Below are positions 1-55,759 of a stretch of DNA of 64,000 bases, in pieces. Origin of the DNA: Octopus vulgaris (lineage: Eukaryota); NCBI GenBank assembly GCA_951406725.2, contig OX597821.1, positions 89,032,001 through 89,096,000 on the forward strand. Reading direction: 5' to 3'. Each line of letters starts with the position of its first letter. Position 1 is the stretch's first letter. The notes below the pieces were generated by a model. The model saw nothing but the letters and a program-made list of their open reading frames with translations, did not search any database and was not told where the DNA came from. Position numbers and translations under genes: made by a program.

Positions 1-421
1 GTTCTCTTTTAGAGAGACTTAGTTATTTTAATATTTCTATTATTGAAAACAAGTGGATGTATTCCACCGAAACTAGGTAAATAAAACCATCGAACAGAGA
101 TTGTCGGAAGCGACACCTACTGGCTGGCTACGCTGCATTGAAAAGGGGCAATACCCCGAAACGCGTCTGTAGCTGCCGGTCAAGTAGTGTGGAGCGACTG
201 ACCTCCCTTGTTCGAAGGTTATATGGATACAGTTTGTGTATCAAATAGCTAACTTAAGGCGATGGCCATTTTTTAATATTTCATGGGAGCTACCATAAGC
301 GGACAGCTTTTTCTTATTTTTATAAGAATGCCATATTAGTATGGCGATAACTGGCGATTATTTTCCGGGAACGCTGCCGCTGTTCTCTTTTAGAGAGACT
401 TAGTTATTTTAATATTTCTAT

Positions 422-424
<3 letters not shown>
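1..424 (+). mobile_element. Non-coding HHR-bearing element with 381-bp period (candidate retrozyme or PLE pseudo-LTR)
   Basis: Bases 1-43 (GTTCTCTTTTAGAGAGACTTAG...CTATTAT) are repeated exactly at 382-424. Contains an HHR at 126-177 and several hairpins, and ends in (TA)n. Left end is cut by the window. Confidence 0.7.
126..177 (+). ncRNA. Type I hammerhead ribozyme, U3-A8 core variant
   Basis: GGC TAC GCTGCA | TTGAAAA | GGGG CAATA CCCC | GAAAC GC GT C | TGTAGC T GCC: 6-bp stem I with 3x1 internal loop, 4-bp stem II, palindromic stem III ACGCGT. Confidence 0.85.
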
Positions 425-20594: not shown

Positions 20595-20626
20595 TTCTGA
20601 CGAAGAGTTCTGCTCGAAACGTTAAA
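20595..20626 (+). ncRNA. Minimal hammerhead-like motif
   Basis: TT CTGACGA A GAG TTCTG CTC GAAAC GT T AAA; weak stem I, extra A after A9. Confidence 0.55.
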
Positions 20627-20721
20627 TCCTCTATCCTTCTTTCCTTTCCTGAGCATCCAATAACACTAGATTTGTTTCACGTCAACGCGTTGTTGTGTTT
20701 TCGCTTTGCTCATGTTTGGAG

Positions 20722-25336: not shown

Positions 25337-27589
25337 TACCGATTGTTGCAGCTGTATATGTCCGTGAATTTGTGGAGAAGGTTGTTGTTATACCAACCAG
25401 CTAGTTTCATATAGCTGTCCTCTGATGTTGATAGCCGGCTTCTGTTGGTGTATTAATATGACTTCGGTGATTCTAGGGTTCTCTCCTTTCTCATCAATGT
25501 TTGAGGCAGCCTGGTCTGTGCTGGGATCAATCTGAAATTTACAGTTAAGTTTGTTTAATGTTGTAATTGTAAGTTCATCTTTTTATGTTATGCGTTTTAC
25601 TTAATTATTCATTGTGGGTTTTGCGTTTGCGACTGGTGTATGCATCGGATGCCTGTGCATTCCATTGTTTAATATCTGATTTATGTTATGAAAAATTCGT
25701 CTTCCGACTTTGAAAGTATCTCCCGAAGTTTGATAGACAAGTGCAGTAAGTTTCCGTTAGTTGTGTGACTTTTGGCTTCGAGTGTTGAAAGACTGCATAC
25801 TTGAGAATGCACTGGTCCTTGTAAACCAATGTCTTCAGACTGTGGTGAAAGTACTGTGCTGAGATTCAATGAACTGTGGTTTGTGTTCATTTTGTAGTAA
25901 AGAATTGCTGCAGAAATCATCTCTGGCATGTGTCGTCAGATTTTCATAGAATTAATTTCATAGCAAAATGTTTTCATAACATCCATTCTATCAACTATAA
26001 TGCACCAAAGAACATTCTTTGGGCTACAGTGATTTAGTTGAGTTTCCTTATTGAGAAATTCCTTCAACATAGACTGAATTGCTCCAGAATGTTTCGGATT
26101 TAGGTTTTATGAACAGAGACTCAACTCATCGATTTTTCTCTGGATTAATTGAAATTTAGCGTTGCACCCCATATCACTGTGCAACACTATTTCATTTACT
26201 GAAAATACGTCATGTCCACACACAGTCTGCATTATTTAGCTTCACCTAGAATGTTAATCTTATTCATAGAAGTAACGTTTCGCATTTGCATGGCCTGTAT
26301 GCTACTTTCCAATTACCAGTGATGCATATTCATACACAGAAAATGTTATCTCTAAACTATTTGCTTCCGTTTTGTTTTCGTACTGCTGACCATATTACTG
26401 CAGTTGTCAGCATCATGCTACAGTTCATATTCATAGTTATTTACCACTTCAACTATACAGACTGCAAACAGGAGTGCCCCAAATATTAAATTTTGTTAGA
26501 TTAAGAAAGCAGTGTGTTGACCTAAAATGGCGACCTTGCTGTATTGCCCATTAAAATAGTTTTGAAATTGCCTAGTCGTTGCCTGAGATATTTACTTGTG
26601 TTGTATATGCTGATTTGTTGTGTTAAACGTTGATATACAATGCTATGTTAAATATCTCCTGGCCTAGGCCAAGGTTGTTCTTCTATCTGTAGAAGATGTA
26701 AATCAGAATATCTGATGTATTGTCATTGGCTAAGACGAATTCAAGAACAGAGCTTGTCGTTTAGTTTATAGTTTTGCAGTTGTTTCTGGACTCCTTTTTC
26801 AATAATTGATAATGGAGTAAGTAAACAGGTCAACATATTATAAAGATTAAATCTAAAGTCTCTTATCTATATTTAGAAATCACAGGGTGCAACATCCTCT
26901 GGTGTGGAGATACAAAACAAATTATGCACAGATGATGAAGCGACACAGACTCTCTTCCTTTGCGCTTCCCTTGTGATGTATATTTCATACATGTGTATAT
27001 TGCCACAGGTGAATAGCAAACTGTTTGTTTCCTACAGTATTCACTTTGAAATTTGAACCGAAATATTTGAAATGACTGATATTAATATTTAGATTTCGTT
27101 ATATTTCAAAGATGTTGATAGTATTGCTATATATTGATTTTCGTCATTCATTAGTAGCAAAGCTTTGTAAATACAACGGTTTTCCTTTATCATTTGTATT
27201 TGATTGTTAAGTTATAGTGAAACGACCGATCGGTTACAAGATATCTACCGTGATTTATCGAAAATTGACGGTGATGGAAGAGTAGTTTTACAGAATAACT
27301 CGAAATATTTGGAGGAAAAGCAACCTAGGTTCTTTGCTGAAGGGTCTTACCTGGCATAATGAAATCCAAATGTTACCAGGTATTGTTCATATTGTAAATA
27401 TGTGTATCATGATATCGTATTTTTCAGCATACAAGTTGAACTTTACAGGCTAAAATACAAAGACAATAAAGGCTGATTAACTTATACACGAAAATGAATT
27501 TGGATTTCCAAGCATTCTATATACAATATTGCAGGATTGGAAAGATAGCAATAATGTTTAAATGTTTACATTATATACTACGTCGACTT

Positions 27590-28040
27590 GCATGCCCAAC
27601 CTACCACTTCCTTCCTTCAATCGCGCCCACAACCTGCATCACCTCCTAGTCCACAGTTTCTCCCTTAACCCCACCTCCCGGCCTGGCTATTTCCTCTGCT
27701 CCCGCCCACGCTTCCGTACTTGTCTCCACCTCTCCAACACCATCATCCTCGCTGGGACCAATCATCATACCTATCACATCACCGACTCCTTTATTTGCAC
27801 TTCCAGCAACGTCATTTACTGCATCTCCTGCTCTTTCTGCTCTGCCATGTACATCGCGAGCACCGCTTGGCTGATCGGTTCGCGGAGCACCGCTGAGACA
27901 TCAGACTCGGCAATTACACCTCGGTCTCACACCATTTCCGCTCTACCGGTCATTCACCAAAGCATCTGTCTGTGTTCGGACTGTCTTTGCACAGGCTCCA
28001 TCCAGACTCACACCTTCGCCGTGAACAGGGACTAATCTTC
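27590..28040 (+). pseudogene. Penelope-like element GIY-YIG endonuclease fragment (Neptune-type Cys linker)
   Basis: CSRPRFRTCLHL...FICTSSNVIYCISCSFCSAMYI, then after a frameshift RLADRFAEHR*DI...VSHHF...RREQGLIF. Confidence 0.85.
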
Positions 28041-40718: not shown

Positions 40719-43700
40719 CTAGTTTGTGAATCCACCTCTGATACGTGGCACTTGATCAACAAGGGAGTTCGATGCTGCTGCCCGCATCCGTGTCTCCTGT
40801 CGTGAGGTAGGTTCATCTGGGACTCCCAACAAGAAGAGATCCAGTTTAGTTTTAAAGAAACCCACATCCACACCATGTAAGTCTCTCAGGCATTTAGGGA
40901 GGATGTTAAAGAGCTGTGGTCCTCTGAAACCCAAGCTGTTGCAGTATCTGGACCTGTATTTTGATGGTGATGTTGGAATCCTTGGCACCACGCAGCGGCG
41001 CCCCGTTCTGCGGTTGGAGTAACTTTGAATGCCAAAGTTTGGGACAAGACCCTCCAGGATTTTCCAGATGTATATCACTGCATATCTCTCCCGCCTCCGC
41101 TCCAGGGAGAAGAGGTTTAATACCTTCAGTCTTTCCCAGTAGCTGACATTTTGCATTGAGACGATTTTCTTTGTGTAGCTTCTCTGAGTTGCTTCGAGTT
41201 CTGCTGTTTGTTTTATATTGTGTGGTGACCAAAGTTGGGAGCAGTAGTCCAAGCGGCTGAGGACAAATGTTTTCCATAGGACCATCAGTGTCTCCTTCTC
41301 TCTTGTTCTGAAAGTTCGGAGAATCCATCCAGCTAGCCGTCTGCATTTTATCACCAGATTAGCAATATGCATTTGGAAAGATGCATCATTGCTCATGTCA
41401 ATGCCCAGGTCACGCACTGATTTTGACTCAGGGATTGCAATTCTTCCTGGGCCAGTGTATCCAGTCTTCACGTCATTTACCTTTGTGTGCCAGTAGCGCA
41501 GGGCCTGGAACTTACCTGCATTAAACTGCATGTTGTTGTCCGCAGCCCACCTGTATATTGTGTCCAGCTCATGTTGCAGATGCGCAATATTTTCAGGGTT
41601 TTGTATTGCGTGGGAGACTTTTGTGTCATCTGCATAGCTAGCAAGGGTGGTCATCGTAGCAACTGAAGGCATGTCTGAAAGGGCCACTATGAACATCAGT
41701 GGCCCCAAGACAGTGCCCTGTGGGACACCGCTTGTTATTTGCGTTTCCCTGGAGGTGGCTCCATTGCTCACAACTGCCTGTTTTCTGTCTTTTAGGAAGT
41801 TGTGCAGCCACTCTCCAAGTTTCCCGCCTATGCCGAGACCACGCAGTTTGTGACAGATCATACCATGGTCGACTTTATCAAAGGCTTTTGCAAAGTCAAG
41901 ATATATTACATCCACATTTGAGCCATTTAGTAGCTGTTTCAACACCCAGTCATAGTGTTGCAGGAGCTGTGTTAGGCAGCCTCTACCTGGTCGAAATCCA
42001 TGCTGGGTGTCAGACAGTAAGTCATTTTCTTCAAGGAACATGATTAGTTTCTTACGGACTATTCGTTCCATGACTTTGCTGATGTGTGAGGTCAGAGAGA
42101 TAGGCCTATAATTTTTAGCATCTGCTCTGCTACCTCCCTTATGGATAGGGCATATTACCCCCTCTTTCAGTTTGACTGGGAGCTTACCACTTGCAAGAAA
42201 GCTCTGAAAAAGAAGCTGTAGCGGTTTTGCAAGGGCTCGTTTGCACGATTTGAGAAGGATCGCTGGGAATCCATCAGGTCCAGCAGCTGAGTTTGTGTCA
42301 ATCTCATCAATGGCTAGTGTGATATCATCTTCTTCGATGTTGATGTACTCAATTTTTGTCTCTTTGGCCGCTGGTAAAGTGGCAAAGAATTCTTCTGGGT
42401 TGTTTACTTGCCTGTGTCCTAGAGGTGTAGTGAACACACTTTGGAACTGTTCGTTCAGTATTTCACTTATCCTCGTGGGATTTCCTGTGAGAGAGCCATC
42501 TTTTTGGAAGAGAGGTCCTATTCTCTGGTGCACTGTGGCTGTCTCTTTGGCAAACTTAAAGAAAGCTTTAGGGTTTGATTTTATATTTTCTATTACCCAA
42601 GCTTCTTTATCTGCTCTCTCCTTTTCATGGGACTGATGTAGACTTTTCTCAGTTTCCATTAGCATTCTTTCGAGCCGAGACTTCTCACCACTTTTGGTGT
42701 GCTTGCTCAGGCGGTTTGCAATCCTTGTCCGTCGTCTCATAAGAATCCTCCTTTCTCTAGGGATCCTGTTTTTATTCTTGTGTGTGCTGGCCCTGCACAT
42801 TGGGACATATTTGTCACATATGGCTTGTATTATGGACATGAAGTGTTTGTGTTTCATGTTTATGTCCGGTGTGGAGAGACATTCAGGCCAATCCTGTTTG
42901 AGGATCTCTTTCTCAATCGACTTCCAGTTGGCTTTATGAAAGTTTAAGTTGGAGAGATGGTGGGTGCTTCGTATAGGCTGTGTGTCTGCGGGGGCTTTTG
43001 TTCCATACATAGACAGCTCTATTATGTTGTGATCCGAGATCATTGTCGGCATCACATTAACATTATGGATAATATCCATATTGTTTGTAAAGCAGAGATC
43101 CAGTATATTATCTGCCCTTGTTGGTTGCAGAACTATTTGCTCCATGAAAGAGGTATTTGTGAGATGGAGCAGGGACTCCACCTGTGCCTGCTGATGGTGT
43201 GTCATCCCTGGGAGCATCTGCCCCCCAGGCCATTCCACATTGGGGAGGTTAAAGTCACCCATGAAGAATACACTGTTGTGCTGTTCAAGGTTGGTGAGGA
43301 CTTCTCCTATTTTTGTTAGGCAGTCTTCAAACATGCCTGAGTGTTTTGGGGCGTCTGGTGGGCGATATGTAGTGCATATGACGATATTCAGTTGTCTTAT
43401 GTGTACAATTTGAGTTTCACATACTGAGTTTGAATATGACAGCAGGACCTGGGGCGTGAGGTCATCTCGGATGTACATTGCAACTCCACCATGGCTCCTC
43501 CCTTTTCTATCTGTGCGTATGACTGCATATTGCGGCATGTGTATTTCTGCATCACCTATATCGGGTTCAAGATGCGTTTCTGTGAGTGCCATGCATATAG
43601 CTTGATTGCATGTCACAAGGTCTCTCAGGAATGAAATTTTCTTTTTACAGTTTCCGCGCAGCAGCCCTCCTACATTCAGTAGAAATATTTTTGTGGTGTG

Positions 43701-43823
43701 TGTGTTGGTGTTGGTGTCTGTGGTGGCCATCCTGCATCTGTTGGAGGTGGCCTTATGTGGTGGTAGTTCCAGCTTTGTGCTTGTAGCCAGGTCAGCTGCT
43801 GAACAATTTTTTGTGCCATGCAC
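40719..43823 (-). CDS. LINE ORF2: APE endonuclease + reverse transcriptase (1034 aa; alternative start at 43730)
   Basis: APE motifs LNVGG, TETHL, YRPP, GDFN, LDL, SDH; RT motifs NYRPISLTS, QHGF, DFAKAFD, GVPQGTVLGP, YADD; CR1-type SLERRR. Confidence 0.95.
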   Translation of the reverse strand: MHGTKNCSAADLATSTKLELPPHKATSNRCRMATTDTNTNTHTTKIFLLNVGGLLRGNCKKKISFLRDLVTCNQAICMALTETHLEPDIGDAEIHMPQYAVIRTDRKGRSHGGVAMYIRDDLTPQVLLSYSNSVCETQIVHIRQLNIVICTTYRPPDAPKHSGMFEDCLTKIGEVLTNLEQHNSVFFMGDFNLPNVEWPGGQMLPGMTHHQQAQVESLLHLTNTSFMEQIVLQPTRADNILDLCFTNNMDIIHNVNVMPTMISDHNIIELSMYGTKAPADTQPIRSTHHLSNLNFHKANWKSIEKEILKQDWPECLSTPDINMKHKHFMSIIQAICDKYVPMCRASTHKNKNRIPRERRILMRRRTRIANRLSKHTKSGEKSRLERMLMETEKSLHQSHEKERADKEAWVIENIKSNPKAFFKFAKETATVHQRIGPLFQKDGSLTGNPTRISEILNEQFQSVFTTPLGHRQVNNPEEFFATLPAAKETKIEYINIEEDDITLAIDEIDTNSAAGPDGFPAILLKSCKRALAKPLQLLFQSFLASGKLPVKLKEGVICPIHKGGSRADAKNYRPISLTSHISKVMERIVRKKLIMFLEENDLLSDTQHGFRPGRGCLTQLLQHYDWVLKQLLNGSNVDVIYLDFAKAFDKVDHGMICHKLRGLGIGGKLGEWLHNFLKDRKQAVVSNGATSRETQITSGVPQGTVLGPLMFIVALSDMPSVATMTTLASYADDTKVSHAIQNPENIAHLQHELDTIYRWAADNNMQFNAGKFQALRYWHTKVNDVKTGYTGPGRIAIPESKSVRDLGIDMSNDASFQMHIANLVIKCRRLAGWILRTFRTREKETLMVLWKTFVLSRLDYCSQLWSPHNIKQTAELEATQRSYTKKIVSMQNVSYWERLKVLNLFSLERRRERYAVIYIWKILEGLVPNFGIQSYSNRRTGRRCVVPRIPTSPSKYRSRYCNSLGFRGPQLFNILPKCLRDLHGVDVGFFKTKLDLFLLGVPDEPTSRQETRMRAAASNSLVDQVPRIRGGFTN

Positions 43824-44577
43824 AAAAAGACTGCTGTTCAGCTGCCGCCCTTCTCACATCTGGGTGAAGCTGGCCACCTGTTGGGTTTCCGCGCACCACA
43901 TCTGCATACCGTCTTTCAGTAGTGGTCAGTGCGCTTTTTTCCCTTCTTTTAACTTTTTGTTTTTGTTTTTGTTCTCCCTGAGGGAGGGACCTCTGTCTCG
44001 CGTCCGTGCGGTTTTGGTAGGGCCTCCGATGTGCAAAGCGACAGTTTGCACCTTCAACGCCGTACCAGCAGTCCCCCCTCAGGTAGAATTTGCAGGTGTT
44101 TCTTTCCCTGCCCTTACAGTTTTTGCTGGGGTCCCTCTGCTTTCTCTGGACAGGGCTTCCTTTAGCCTTGATTCTGTCACCCTTTACCTCCTGCTTCCCA
44201 TCAATTCCAGGGTGCCTTTCCTTTCTTGCGGCCATCGCACCTCTTTGGTCTTCAGTTGTGGTGTTGGAAGCTGGACATGTGTCATCGTTTCCCTGTGTTC
44301 CAGGCTTCTCCATTTGGCTCTGGATGCTTTCCTCATCCTTTTGGCCCTCCCTGCTGCCGTCACCTCCCAGGATGATGTCCAGGGTGTCCACATGTTGCCT
44401 GATTAGAGCGTACGAACGGATAACTTCTCTCTTCTTTCGCTCTATCTGGGCGGTGGTTCTCGAAAAATTGTTGCTTTTCAGCGCCGCAGCAATAATGTCG
44501 TTCGGCGAGTCGTCCTCAGCGATCTTCCAAGCGCGGACGAACAATTGCACCTCTCTCGCAGACCAGTTTCTTGCCAT
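43792..44577 (-). CDS. LINE ORF1 (261 aa), Myb/SANT-trihelix-like N-terminus and CCCH zinc finger
   Basis: Directly upstream of ORF2; [13 protein letters not shown]...IAAAL...[11 protein letters not shown]...Y; [22 protein letters not shown]. Confidence 0.8.
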
Positions 44578-48150: not shown

Positions 48151-48238
48151 GAGTTTCTTCGAGACGTTTATTTTATTTGCTTTTAACCCAAAGCAAGTCT
48201 TGTACTTTCGTCACTGGAAAAAGGATATATATATATAT

Positions 48239-48566
48239 GCAACGGGAACCTACTTTTCATCGACGACCGGTGATTGTCACACACTGATGACGGGTCAATA
48301 CCCAGAAACTCGAGTTCGTGTGTATCATACAGGTTTAAGATGGGAAGGATGGCTTCCCTTTGCAAATACTGATACAGCACACAAAGTTTGTCAATAACCA
48401 GCTGGAAGAGGTGTCCTCCTGGGGCTACAAGCTACAGTAGCATCCACCCTTAAGGGTTAGCCACATTTAAGTGGCAATTATACTTCGCGATGTCGTGCAG
48501 CTACTGTTTATACCTCGCTCAGAGATTTATTATAGTCTCGGAAATATTGTTAAAAATACTGCGAAT
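48239..48566 (+). mobile_element. ~330-bp structured HHR element between (TA)n tracts (candidate retrozyme)
   Basis: Rod 48239-48363 encloses the HHR, followed by hairpins GCTAC/GTAGC, ACCCTT/AAGGGT, GCCAC/GTGGC, GAGAT/GTCTC. Confidence 0.7.
48271..48327 (+). ncRNA. Type I hammerhead ribozyme, canonical core
   Basis: TGAT TGT CACACA CTGATGA C GGG TCAATA CCC A GAAAC TCGA GT T CGTGTG T ATCA; mismatches at the base of stems I and II. Confidence 0.8.
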
Positions 48567-48836
48567 TATATATATATATATATATCAGCAAAATTTAGAT
48601 TAGTTAAAATATGTTTGTGACATATTTCAACTGCTAAAAGGCAAATTTGCTGCAGTTACCGTGGAAAAATATCTCTCTTATGGTAAAAATTTGTGAAGAC
48701 ACAAATTTCTTTCAATGTCGACATCTTTCAAGAATCCCAGACATCGTTGTTTCGAATTTTTTAACTCTTGTCAATGGGATGTACCCAAGAGAGGCAACTC
48801 TGAACAAACTGTTATGTAATAATAATAATAATAATG

Positions 48837-49839: not shown

Positions 49840-51187
49840 TTTTTTTTTCTTCTTTCAAATTTGCTTCCATTTCTTGCCTAGTGTCTTCCCGACTCCTAAG
49901 GCAAAGAAACTCATAGTATACATTGGTAGGCCATTAAACCAAACTCAATAGTTCGTTCATTTTTTTTTTTTTTTTAAGTTAAATTAAAATACATGAGCAG
50001 CAACAGTTCTCACATCGACAATGCTCTTCTCAATACGTGTGATGTACCAGTTAAGACAAGCTTTTGCACTTCTTGCAGGGATGGTAAGCCAGGGATCATT
50101 CTCATATAATTTTCGGTTCCCTTCTTGATCATTCCTAGTGCTCCTACGATCACTGGTATTGTAACCGCCTTGAGATGCCACATTTTCTCAATTTCAATGA
50201 GTAGGTCTTTATATTTTCTGAGCTTGTCAAACTCTTTCGCTGAGATATTATAATCACAGGGGATGCTCATGTCGATCAATAAGCAAACTTTATTGTTTTG
50301 GTCTTTCACAACAATATCTGGTTTATTGGCCTTGATGGTTCGGTCTGTATGTACTGGAAAGTCCCACAGAATGGTTACATTTTCTCCTTCAGTTACAGCC
50401 TCAGGGTGGTGATTATACCACTTGTCGGCAGTTTTGATATTGTAATGCCGACTTATTAGCCAGTGGAGATATTGGCCAACTCTGTCATGTCTTAATTTAT
50501 ACTCCACTGGTGCTAAGACTTTACATCCAGAGATTAGGTGGTCCACTGTTTCAATCATGTCGTTGCAGAATCGGCATTTTGGGTCTGCTCCATTTTTCAT
50601 CACATTGGCCTGGTAGTTCCGGGTTAATAGGCTTTGATCTTGAGCAGCCAGGATGAAACCTTCGCTCTCTGCTTTTAGCCCTGAGCTCCGTAGCCACTGA
50701 TGGGTTTGCTTCTGGTCAACATCAGCTTGTTTGCTGTGGGTCACATATTTGCCGTGCAGAGGTTTCTCCTCCCACCTATCAGCCAATTGCTCGTGCGTTT
50801 TTTTTCGTTGCCATCATTTTCACCTTCTTTGCAACAATAGTTGCCGTACTTCCCTCGGGTTGTTCAGTTTGGGTATCCTGCACGAGATCAATAGCAAATT
50901 TTTTGCTTTCCTTTATAATAGAATGAAGCTTCTTTCGTCTCTCGTGATTTTCCACGAGCTTTAGCATCCAGTCATTCGATATTTCGAGATATTTGGCCAG
51001 TCCAATTGTGGTTGTTTTGTAAGCTAGTTCAAATTGGATCAGGCCTCGACCTCCTTGGGCTCTGGGAAGGTAAAGGCGATCTACGTCTGCCTTTGGGTGG
51101 TGCATCCTATTACAACTCAGCAGCTTGCGTATTTTCCTATCTATATTCTTTACTTCACTCATATTCCAGTTCAGTTCACTCATATTC
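49840..51187 (-). mobile_element. 5'-truncated R4/Dong-clade non-LTR retrotransposon (RT C-terminus, CCHC finger, restriction-like endonuclease) in (TAA)n
   Basis: ORFs 50779-51183 and 50010-50786: RLYLPRAQGGRGL, KPLHGKY, CRFC...HLISGC, RHD, KPDIVV...LIDMSIP...K..KY; one frameshift at a T-run near 50800; (ATT)n on both sides. Confidence 0.92.
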
Positions 51188-53388: not shown

Positions 53389-53430
<42 letters not shown>

Positions 53431-53573
53431 TGCATTTTTACCTTGTTAACAATAAACACGGAAAAAATAAATAAATAGTTACCAGTGTAGCAAAAAATCT
53501 CACAAGTAAAGAGGTTGTAACTCCTTGTTTATAAAGGTAGAAACTTCGTGTTTACGTGGAATTTTTTTGTATA

Positions 53574-55749
53574 ATATATGAATAAATAAATGGAGTTTAA
53601 AGCAGGTATAAATCAAATATTTTTACTTTCGACACATGTTTCGAAAATTCCACTGATATCATTCAAAAGAATAAATGGTATAAACAACGCAATCTTCTCT
53701 TAAGGAAAGTGAAAAAACGAAACTCGTCAATAAGACATTTTAGCCAAAAATGATGGATTTGTATAACGATTAACTGAACGCTATTAATAGAGTTTAAAAA
53801 AATATTTATGTGATGTAAGGTCAGAAGTAACTTACAGAAAGAGTAGGGATATTAATAGTGAATGTTAAATATAAAGGAAATTAAAGTTTAAATTCTATAT
53901 AATGATAGAGATTACTTATATGCACTAAAGGTCTGTCTTTGACAATGTTTACATCTGTATGCTCACTCTATAATTGTGTTTACTAGGGGATTTTTAGAAA
54001 AAATAATGGAAAATAGCTCAGAATTACAGAGAATACAGAATTCCTTGCCTTTGTCATAACGTATCGAGATTGAGAGAATCAACCGTTCTAAATGAAATTG
54101 TTCATTGTGGTCTTTTAGATCCCAAATTAGTTTGCTGAGACCAGTACTATTACGTTTATTTCTATCTCTAAATGTTGAGTAATGGATAGAAATTCTTTTA
54201 GATAACTCTAACGATGTGCTTCCAATGTAAAATCGTACTTTATTACGAGTACTGATTATACACAGGTATATAGAATTTTTTATCTTAGAGTTACTTGACG
54301 TAAACTTAATTCTATTGAAATTGACTTCAGATACAATAACCTTGTTATTAATATTTCTAGAGGGCTGGATGGTATTAGCAAAATTAATGTTAGTATTAGT
54401 AAATGTATTAATAGTTAACAGTTTGTTATTATGTAAGGAGATAATTTGTAAGAGATTCTTTGTGTTGGAAAAACCGATCCTAACCGTATGTGAATTGATA
54501 ATAGAGTAATACCTAGAATTCTTTGGAAAATTCTTAACAATAGCTTCACGAAAGAGCAGTGGGACATTAGATTTACTTTGTCTCTTGTATGGAACTATTA
54601 ACCAAATATTTTTACTAGTATTGATAGCGTAATTATTTTTGAAATTGTTATATTTACTTTTAGAACGATAATACGGGATTAAATAAGGGTTAACTCCCTT
54701 CATTCGCTTTGTATCGGTGCATAAGTTACGTTTGTTATCAATAATTCTTTTACAACTAGAAATCATATCTACATTATTGAATTTACAATTAGACTGAGTA
54801 GAATCAATGTAGAAGATTTTCTCTGTATAACCTGCTTTAATTAAGGCAGAGTTATAAAATTCAGCGTTATCATTGAAAATATCAACATTAGCAGATAATT
54901 TAGATAATCTAAATGAAATATTCTTAACTAAGTTCTTAGTAATTGCCCTACGATGATTACTAAATTTGCTAATGTACTTAAGATTGGTCAACGGTTTACG
55001 ATATGGGAAGTAAGAGTCACTGTGTAAATCAAGCGTAATATCTAAAAAGTTGGCCTTCGTCATATTGTCATCAAAAACGATTTTTAAGCCGAATCTACTG
55101 ACAAATTTAACTAAACTATTCTTAACTTTTTGTACCTTTTGGTTGGAAACATTTTGGAGGTAAAGTAAACAATCATCACGATATAGACCTCCGTAAATGT
55201 TAGGGAACTCTTCTGCCATTTCAAAAAGAATATATATACAGACCAAATCAGCTATTTGTGCTGAATGAGAACTTCCCATTGGTATATCGAAACTATCTGG
55301 TGTGTCTTTACGGACCCACAACAAATCAAATTTAATAATAGATCTTCTGGCTGCCAACACAACATTAATTTCTTCTCGGGTGAGACCAGCTGTGTTATGA
55401 GCGAGCCAAAGTGCCTTATTAAGTACTATTGGATTGATAGATGAATACAAATTTGAAATATCAAACTGAATAAACTTAGTATTCCACTTATTAATAATAG
55501 AACGAAACCAGTCAACTGACGTTATATAATATAACGTTTTTTTAAAACAATATTAATAGCGTTCAGTTAATCGCTATACAAATCCATCATTTTTTACTAA
55601 AATGTCTTATTGACGAGTTTCGTTTTTTCACTTTCCTGAATAGAAGATAGCATTGTTTATAGCATTTATTCTTTTGAATAATATCAGTGGAAACATGTGT
55701 CGAAAGTAAAAATATTTGATTTATACCTGCGTTAAGCTCCATTTATTTA

Positions 55750-55759
<10 letters not shown>
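53574..55759 (-). mobile_element. 5'-truncated Penelope-like element (Naiad-like) with inverted pseudo-LTR
   Basis: 53574-53789 is a reverse complement of 55551-55759; both carry HHR remnants (53626-53709 minus, 55631-55706 plus). Confidence 0.9.
53912..55520 (-). pseudogene. PLE reverse transcriptase + GIY-YIG endonuclease (5'-truncated, in-frame TGA at 53963-53965)
   Basis: FIQFDISNLYSSI, FDIPMGS, GLYRDD, FLDITL, SNH, SIYLC...FYIGST, CILCNSE, then E*AYRCKH...AYK*. Confidence 0.9.

Follow-up and report, generated by a model that had tools for sequence, protein, structure and literature searches.

A decayed copy of a tandem-forming hammerhead repeat in Octopus vulgaris and its probable link to Penelope-type copying

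Does an isolated hammerhead-like module in an octopus genome belong to a mobile repeat and, if so, by which route has this repeat spread? The question is raised by a window of 64,000 nucleotides from Octopus vulgaris (contig OX597821.1 of assembly GCA_951406725.2, positions 89,032,001 to 89,096,000, forward strand). A prediction made from the letters alone had proposed a folded module of about 330 bp at 48239–48566 of this window, regarded as a second candidate retrozyme family besides an element at 1–424. We consider it probable that the module is what remains, after decay and 5' truncation, of a hammerhead repeat able to form tandem arrays, whose RNA is predicted to cut itself, to close into a circle and to be copied into TA-rich DNA by the reverse transcriptase (RT) and endonuclease of a Penelope element.

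Limits and hammerhead motif of the window copy

Alignment to the family majority identified a 5'-truncated, single-armed copy at 48206–48533 (plus strand), which covers unit positions 34–357 and ends at the "long" 3' end of the family (see below). The proposed boundaries 48239–48566 were thus off at both ends. A unit segment at 48206–48238 (plus strand), recognized from the flanks of 30 loci and from the alignment, had been omitted; it includes an internal TA run with 4 extra nt. The last 33 bp (48534–48566) are single-copy flank according to the genome match count, as 48535–48563 has one match only in the genome with up to two mismatches allowed. Nor is the element embedded in a (TA)n tract, as had been supposed: the left run is the internal unit segment, and the right run (48567–48585), read directly from the sequence, begins 33 bp past the element end.

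The type I hammerhead motif, delineated from the sequence, a pair list and column counts, occupies 48269–48328 (plus strand) and consists of a distal stem, a 3x1 loop, stem I, the core, stem II with loop 2 and a short palindromic stem III. Its originally described core, 3x1 loop, loop 2 and palindrome were all recovered in the plus-strand letters: CUGAUGA at 48284–48290 and GAAA at 48305–48308, stem II (GGG/CCC) with the loop UCAAUA at 48292–48303, the palindrome ACUCGAGU as stem/loop III at 48308–48315, and the loop UGU/U followed by a distal stem of 5 bp. The "6-bp" stem I (48278–48283/48317–48322) does have six positions, but in the window copy these amount to five pairs and one A·C mismatch. 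The predicted cut site lies between 48316 and 48317. A minimal hammerhead-like motif is also present at 20597–20635 of the window. With a loose hammerhead pattern, 20 overlapping matches were obtained where 4.6 were expected; we set this count aside as evidence. Rfam searches yielded no hammerhead match for the element alone even at an E-value of 10 (one chance snoRNA match), and just microsatellite-driven miRNA-type matches for the whole window among the 150 of 240 matches listed.

That the copy is decaying, as had been proposed, is borne out by 15 substitutions relative to the family majority in 324 aligned bases, besides the 4-nt TA insertion. Two of the substitutions affect the ribozyme and are private to this copy: G2.1>A at 48283 (plus strand), a CpG-type change that breaks the pair beside the cut site (G in 36/40 covering copies), and C17>U at 48316 (plus strand; C in 37/41 copies), which turns the GUC of the family majority into GUU. 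The original prediction had instead taken two junction mismatches as signs of decay, of which G2.1>A qualifies. The other, a C10.1·A11.1 mismatch that closes stem II (48291–48304, plus strand) in place of G-C, is the family-wide state according to column counts: A11.1 occurs in 41/41 and C10.1 in 35/41 copies of subfamily A, and in 28/30 and 24/30 copies, respectively, of subfamily B. The C·A mismatch is therefore a family trait and not decay. As judged from these letters, the window copy is probably a passive remnant predicted to cut poorly or not at all, and such a dead remnant is of slight interest by itself.

G10.1-C11.1 has been termed highly conserved (PMC4209133) and is lacking here, so that ribozyme activity could be low. 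The axolotl HHR_Amex2 is likewise mismatched where helix II begins, with U·U instead of C·A; on its own that ribozyme shows weak cleavage, but its dimer cleaves well (Cervera and de la Pena 2020, PMC7229834). In published work, dimer-dependent cleavage of this kind is marked by a short palindromic helix III. In subfamily A2, an A-U pair of stem I has become G-C and the loop III palindrome has changed from UCGA to CCGG, each in one event. Where the first of the two bases flanking the loop of stem III is changed, the second is changed as well in 7/8 copies, so that the palindrome is kept (one subfamily event). The core, the GUC and the stem geometry are retained across subfamilies that are 75% identical, with compensation in stem I and in the stem III palindrome.

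Unit family, fold and relatives

The genome comprises 2.8 Gb and is rich in microsatellites. A DNA search with the window copy returned 4027 first-look candidates, of which the best 40 were scored. The 39 other loci among these are 89–93% identical and match only query positions ~1–296, and according to their flanks the unit starts further upstream than the query, in head-to-tail permutation. A 29-mer has 516 exact genome matches and is carried exactly by 17 of 50 independently chosen loci, which implies roughly 1,500 or more unit segments; the family size is estimated at 1,500–4,000 copies. Exact matches of the 33-mer ribozyme core number 61, a lower count explained by truncation and by the existence of subfamilies. 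Median identities among 81 copies of 93% to the majority and 88% between copies indicate that the family is not young.

Units measure 352–358 bp; some are dispersed, and others form head-to-tail arrays with nine units at most. The 23 matches of a two-unit pattern search represent a nine-unit array, a five-unit array, three dimers (353–359 bp) and a 50-bp minisatellite. Both arrays have a 352-bp period and end at the short 3' site (see below), and the nine units of the larger one are 98.2–99.7% alike. Subfamily B, which is 75% identical to subfamily A and has 3266 candidates, includes two of the three dimers. The minisatellite (L092–L099, G000:C23:42842893–42843704) derives from the 5' half of the hammerhead and adjoins two diverged full units. 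No ORF was found between units, and every extended copy examined continues into another unit. An autonomous Penelope-like element was rejected as an identification of the repeat, as units abut units with no ORF for RT and GIY-YIG endonuclease between them. By its sequence, the 356-bp unit family is a non-coding, non-autonomous and protein-free repeat with a predicted self-cutting motif.

Folding predicts an enclosing rod at unit positions 58–197 (about 48234–48373, plus strand), at whose 3' foot many family copies are cut off, and a string of small hairpins (48374–48533, plus strand) that holds both family 3' ends. The rod of ~125 nt (about 48239–48363) and small hairpins described originally are recovered in such predictions, and the plus strand of the 328-nt stretch folds better than shuffled sequences (z = -3.04, as against -0.99 for the minus strand), but the minimum-energy fold lacks a hammerhead-shaped core: the hammerhead shape reaches -10.6 kcal/mol versus -16.5 kcal/mol for the optimum. 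Folded as circles, the majorities of A and B adopt the same rod and hairpins, with z-scores against shuffles of -8.7 and -7.3 (reverse strands -5.2 and -6.4). Twenty-six of the 97 confident pairs predicted from A alone vary in B. Eleven of them have changed on both sides, and nine of these still pair (null mean 2.2, P 0.0002), in what is one comparison between two lineages; of all 26 varying pairs, 11 break in B, mostly at the misregistered rod base. Compared with subfamily A2 (9 loci), five of 12 varying pairs are kept and seven broken, partly owing to an indel register problem. Pairing is thus kept across copies between A and B and more weakly towards A2. With its many copies, tandem arrays and covarying fold, the proposed retrozyme family is upheld.

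The element at 1–424 corresponds to a related, much younger family with a 362-bp unit at 23–422 (plus strand), homologous along the whole unit and with the same two 3' end sites. This family has 1120 candidates, and all 20 copies compared are 99.2–100% identical to their majority. The two families had been called independent, with no evident similarity outside the hammerhead. Global alignment with the hammerhead removed contradicts this: the 1–424 unit aligns to A and B with z-scores of 7.1 and 7.7, which none of 1000 shuffles reached, and is 51–52% identical to them end to end with a matching hairpin order. Unit lengths are 356 (A), 358 (B) and 362 bp, and insertions of the 1–424 family end at sites homologous to those of the window-copy family. 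The two are distinct families of one lineage, with an ancestry in common. The 1–424 element itself (window 23–422; G000:C8:89030681–89032422) shows multi-unit two-armed insertions in (TA)n. Its family majority carries extra bases between CUG and UGA, which indicates that a variant core has become fixed and does not reflect decay.

Insertion anatomy and Penelope-type elements

Insertions of the family have two fixed 3' ends, a short one at unit positions 305–317 (about 48481–48493 in the window) and a long one at 355–356 plus a few bases (48533 and a few bases beyond), and 44/50 loci picked by the ribozyme core end at one of them. Both lie 170–225 nt past the predicted cut. Among 30 loci chosen by 3' pattern, of which three represent the second arm of an insertion already counted, unit positions 114–151 contain no 5' end, so that copying was not halted by the cut site; 13 of the 5' ends fall at 190–215, the rod foot. 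(TA)3 follows 63/133 fixed ends versus 2/16 other ends. Back-to-back arms occur in 42/105 subfamily-A loci, two further two-piece loci having failed the adjacency rule. Thirty of these 42 pair a long with a short end, none combines long with long or short with short, and 12 have one or both ends elsewhere; 30 of the 105 loci were selected for their likeness to the window copy, a choice that biases the main arm towards the long end but does not constrain the other arm. In subfamily B, the corresponding count is 5 long+short of 12, with no like ends.

The two arms of one locus share variants at 0.025 per base, as against 0.007 between loci, and rare variants at 0.0032 per base (null mean 0.0005, maximum 0.0017); both values exceed all 500 permutations. 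Most variants are unshared, including 260 rare ones, and the shared ones could stem from gene conversion. Target-site duplications are not above chance (6/61 loci; null mean 2.8, maximum 9), and microsatellite flanks hide them. A copy within a LINE fragment (L028:1490–1810) has a possible duplication of 9–10 bp with one mismatch, noted by eye. Other mobile elements in the window include an apparently intact LINE at 40719–43853 (minus strand), with an open 1044-aa endonuclease and RT frame (Pfam RVT_1, Exo_endo_phos) and a 263-aa frame upstream, and, at 50010–51186 (minus strand) beside a long (TAT)n run, a broken RT element in which Pfam weakly matches a zf-RVT-like domain.

The polar end pattern of the family largely refutes a satellite that spreads at the DNA level by recombination or extrachromosomal DNA circles and contains the hammerhead incidentally. 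The homogeneous arrays and the 50-bp minisatellite derived from a portion of the hammerhead would suit such a satellite. Evidence against it comes from 3' ends that are fixed while 5' ends are ragged, from the long/short arm rule and from the RNA-type covariation, and we regard it as scarcely credible. The inverted 5' arm, the one-ended tail, the 5' truncation and the (TA)n bias of the family are Penelope-type features; the first two and the (TA)n bias have been reported as characteristic of Penelope elements (PMC8557442). The insertion shapes match the Penelope type, and the family likely works like a Penelope-mobilised element.

Penelope elements are indeed present. One with approximate ends lies at 53425–55755 (minus strand), with an ORF for RT and a GIY-YIG-type endonuclease (EN) at 53963–55552 and an inverted arm; a degenerate hammerhead-like core was also noted in this element. 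Its family has 23,595 candidates, a 775-aa ORF and ends in (TA)n. We term it Hydra-like on the basis of motifs (DKT, CxxC and CxH around E and N, a C-terminal EN, and a length under 3 kb), as set out for the Hydra clade (PMC8557442), which is reported there from cnidarians and a sea cucumber; searches with the ORF gave no Pfam match and no meaningful PDB match. Of 30 loci, 16 are two-armed: 12 long+short, one short+short and three other, with arm ends binned by eye (323–345, 476–486); the family thus follows the arm rule seen in the retrozyme. The tail of this family measures ~140–150 nt versus 45–50 nt in the retrozyme, and its terminal repeat has barely or no similarity to the unit (P 0.044, 0.94, 0.19). 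Owing to the differing tail and the lack of a clear terminal-repeat likeness, the family exemplifies the class of mechanism and not the partner itself; Hydra-like Penelope elements are a candidate class for that partner. At 27562–28035 (plus strand), the window also contains part of another Penelope-type endonuclease group, a diverse one with 13,824 candidates.

An autonomous Penelope element could in principle carry the unit as its terminal repeat (pLTR), with 5'-truncated copies dominating. All insertion scars are of Penelope type, and retrozymes and pLTRs of Xenopus are related (Li, Clavereau, Pollet, bioRxiv 10.64898/2026.07.22.740005). Every extended copy examined, however, leads into another unit and not into an ORF. 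Penelope protein fragments occur in 3/160 loci, none of them sense-joined to the unit 5' end, and a parent terminal repeat is absent from the two Penelope-type groups tested, the second represented by 15 loci. This derivation therefore appears very improbable.

Known retrozymes and the predicted circle

The kind of element, a retrozyme, is already known, and by genomic criteria the octopus family fits the metazoan non-LTR retrozymes, its cleavage and circles being predicted from sequence. As described for these (PMC7229834), it has a type I hammerhead, a non-coding tandem unit within 150–450 bp (350–390 bp in mussel, 330/350 bp in axolotl), a GC content <50%, no LTR features, a self-paired fold, a palindromic short helix III and co-existing Penelope elements. 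Unlike them, its copies are mostly dispersed, truncated or two-armed instead of forming long arrays, its duplications are not above chance, and it is known from the genome only. With Hydra-clade Penelope-like elements it shares 5' truncation, partial tandems and an inverted 5' arm (Craig et al. 2021, PMC8557442), as well as a one-ended extension, TA-rich targets and a hammerhead upstream of the 3' end (PMC8557442, PMC4209133). It differs from them by a unit without ORF, by the short tail of 45–50 nt, and by a canonical extended hammerhead with loops 1 and 2 where Penelope hammerheads are minimal (PMC4209133); no clear sequence kinship links the unit to either Penelope group tested. Vertebrate retrozymes, viewed as pLTR derivatives, likewise form dispersed monomers and few multimers and co-occur with Penelope (bioRxiv 10.64898/2026.07.22.740005). 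That case is built on co-occurrence and pLTR trees, whereas the link in octopus is the insertion footprint, with no parent pLTR found. Plant LTR retrozymes are unlike the family, as their hammerheads are of type III and lie in LTRs accompanied by PBS and PPT; the octopus units are of type I, arranged head to tail and free of an internal region.

The octopus family itself appears undescribed. The literature consulted on octopus and cephalopod retrozymes and on Penelope twin priming holds no description of the family or of a retrozyme arm rule; this coverage took in part of PMC7229834, where no long/short rule was found for retrozymes and whose supplement may contain mollusc examples. The squid genome paper, in the part consulted, only counts 235 hammerhead matches (PMC6962438).

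According to the sequence of events that we favour, multimeric array transcripts would cleave themselves after GUC, probably as a double hammerhead via the palindromic stem III, and a host ligase would close the monomer RNA into a circle, as in PMC7229834. A Penelope enzyme would then nick both target strands, and priming would start from two fixed points ~45–50 nt apart, 170–225 nt downstream of the cut site. Copying would pass the cut site and circle the unit more than once, or stall at the rod foot, and the two cDNA ends would join head to head. We consider it likely that Penelope-type elements copied the unit from a small RNA circle.

A non-autonomous Penelope derivative copied from linear multimeric array transcripts, with no circle and a hammerhead that is slow or vestigial through C10.1·A11.1, seems an unlikely substitute for this scheme. 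Linear multimers would likewise account for copies longer than one unit and for copying past the cut site, the 10.1-11.1 pair is non-canonical, 8/9 Xenopus dimers assayed failed to cleave (bioRxiv 10.64898/2026.07.22.740005), and read ends from another species do not accumulate at the cut site. Three RNA-seq runs of that species contain 720, 708 and 493 reads, of 11.5–12.9 million, that are mostly partial, are about equal in orientation and come from a related family. The expressed variant has no match in the octopus genome, so that these reads do not speak for the octopus family, and some span the inverted-arm junction or enter the flank, which indicates a contribution from read-through of genomic insertions. 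In another species, runs X21–X23 on L065:500–1000 show transcription of a related, fairly homogeneous family with the A-to-G change of A2 in loop III. Among sequencing runs that contain the octopus stretch, none is recorded as RNA; 14 may be RNA by guess alone, one of which (X1) covers it at high summed depth. A vestigial hammerhead is difficult to reconcile with the compensated retention of core, GUC and stem geometry at 75% identity, with a constant unit length of 356–362 bp across families that are 51% identical, and with the axolotl U·U hammerhead, which still cleaves and does so better as a dimer.

A more specific version of the circle scheme is plausible, although we lean somewhat against it. 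It posits an old lineage of circles, represented by families 51–75% identical, that carry two homologous priming points. A Penelope enzyme would write each two-armed insertion by priming once per cut strand, one at each point of a single circle, with frequent stalling at the rod foot, and the C10.1·A11.1 ribozyme would act as an obligate dimer. If true, such a ribozyme would permit cleavage of multimers but leave monomer circles intact. The family-wide C·A closure of stem II together with the co-varying palindrome provides a natural test of dimer-dependent cleavage. Mobilisation of animal retrozymes by Penelope elements has been proposed, not shown, in PMC7229834. If our specific version holds, the octopus family would supply genomic evidence for this route, and the one-ended Penelope "tail" would represent two priming sites. 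The strict long/short arm rule, common to a coding Penelope family and three related retrozyme families, leads to testable predictions on where priming starts.
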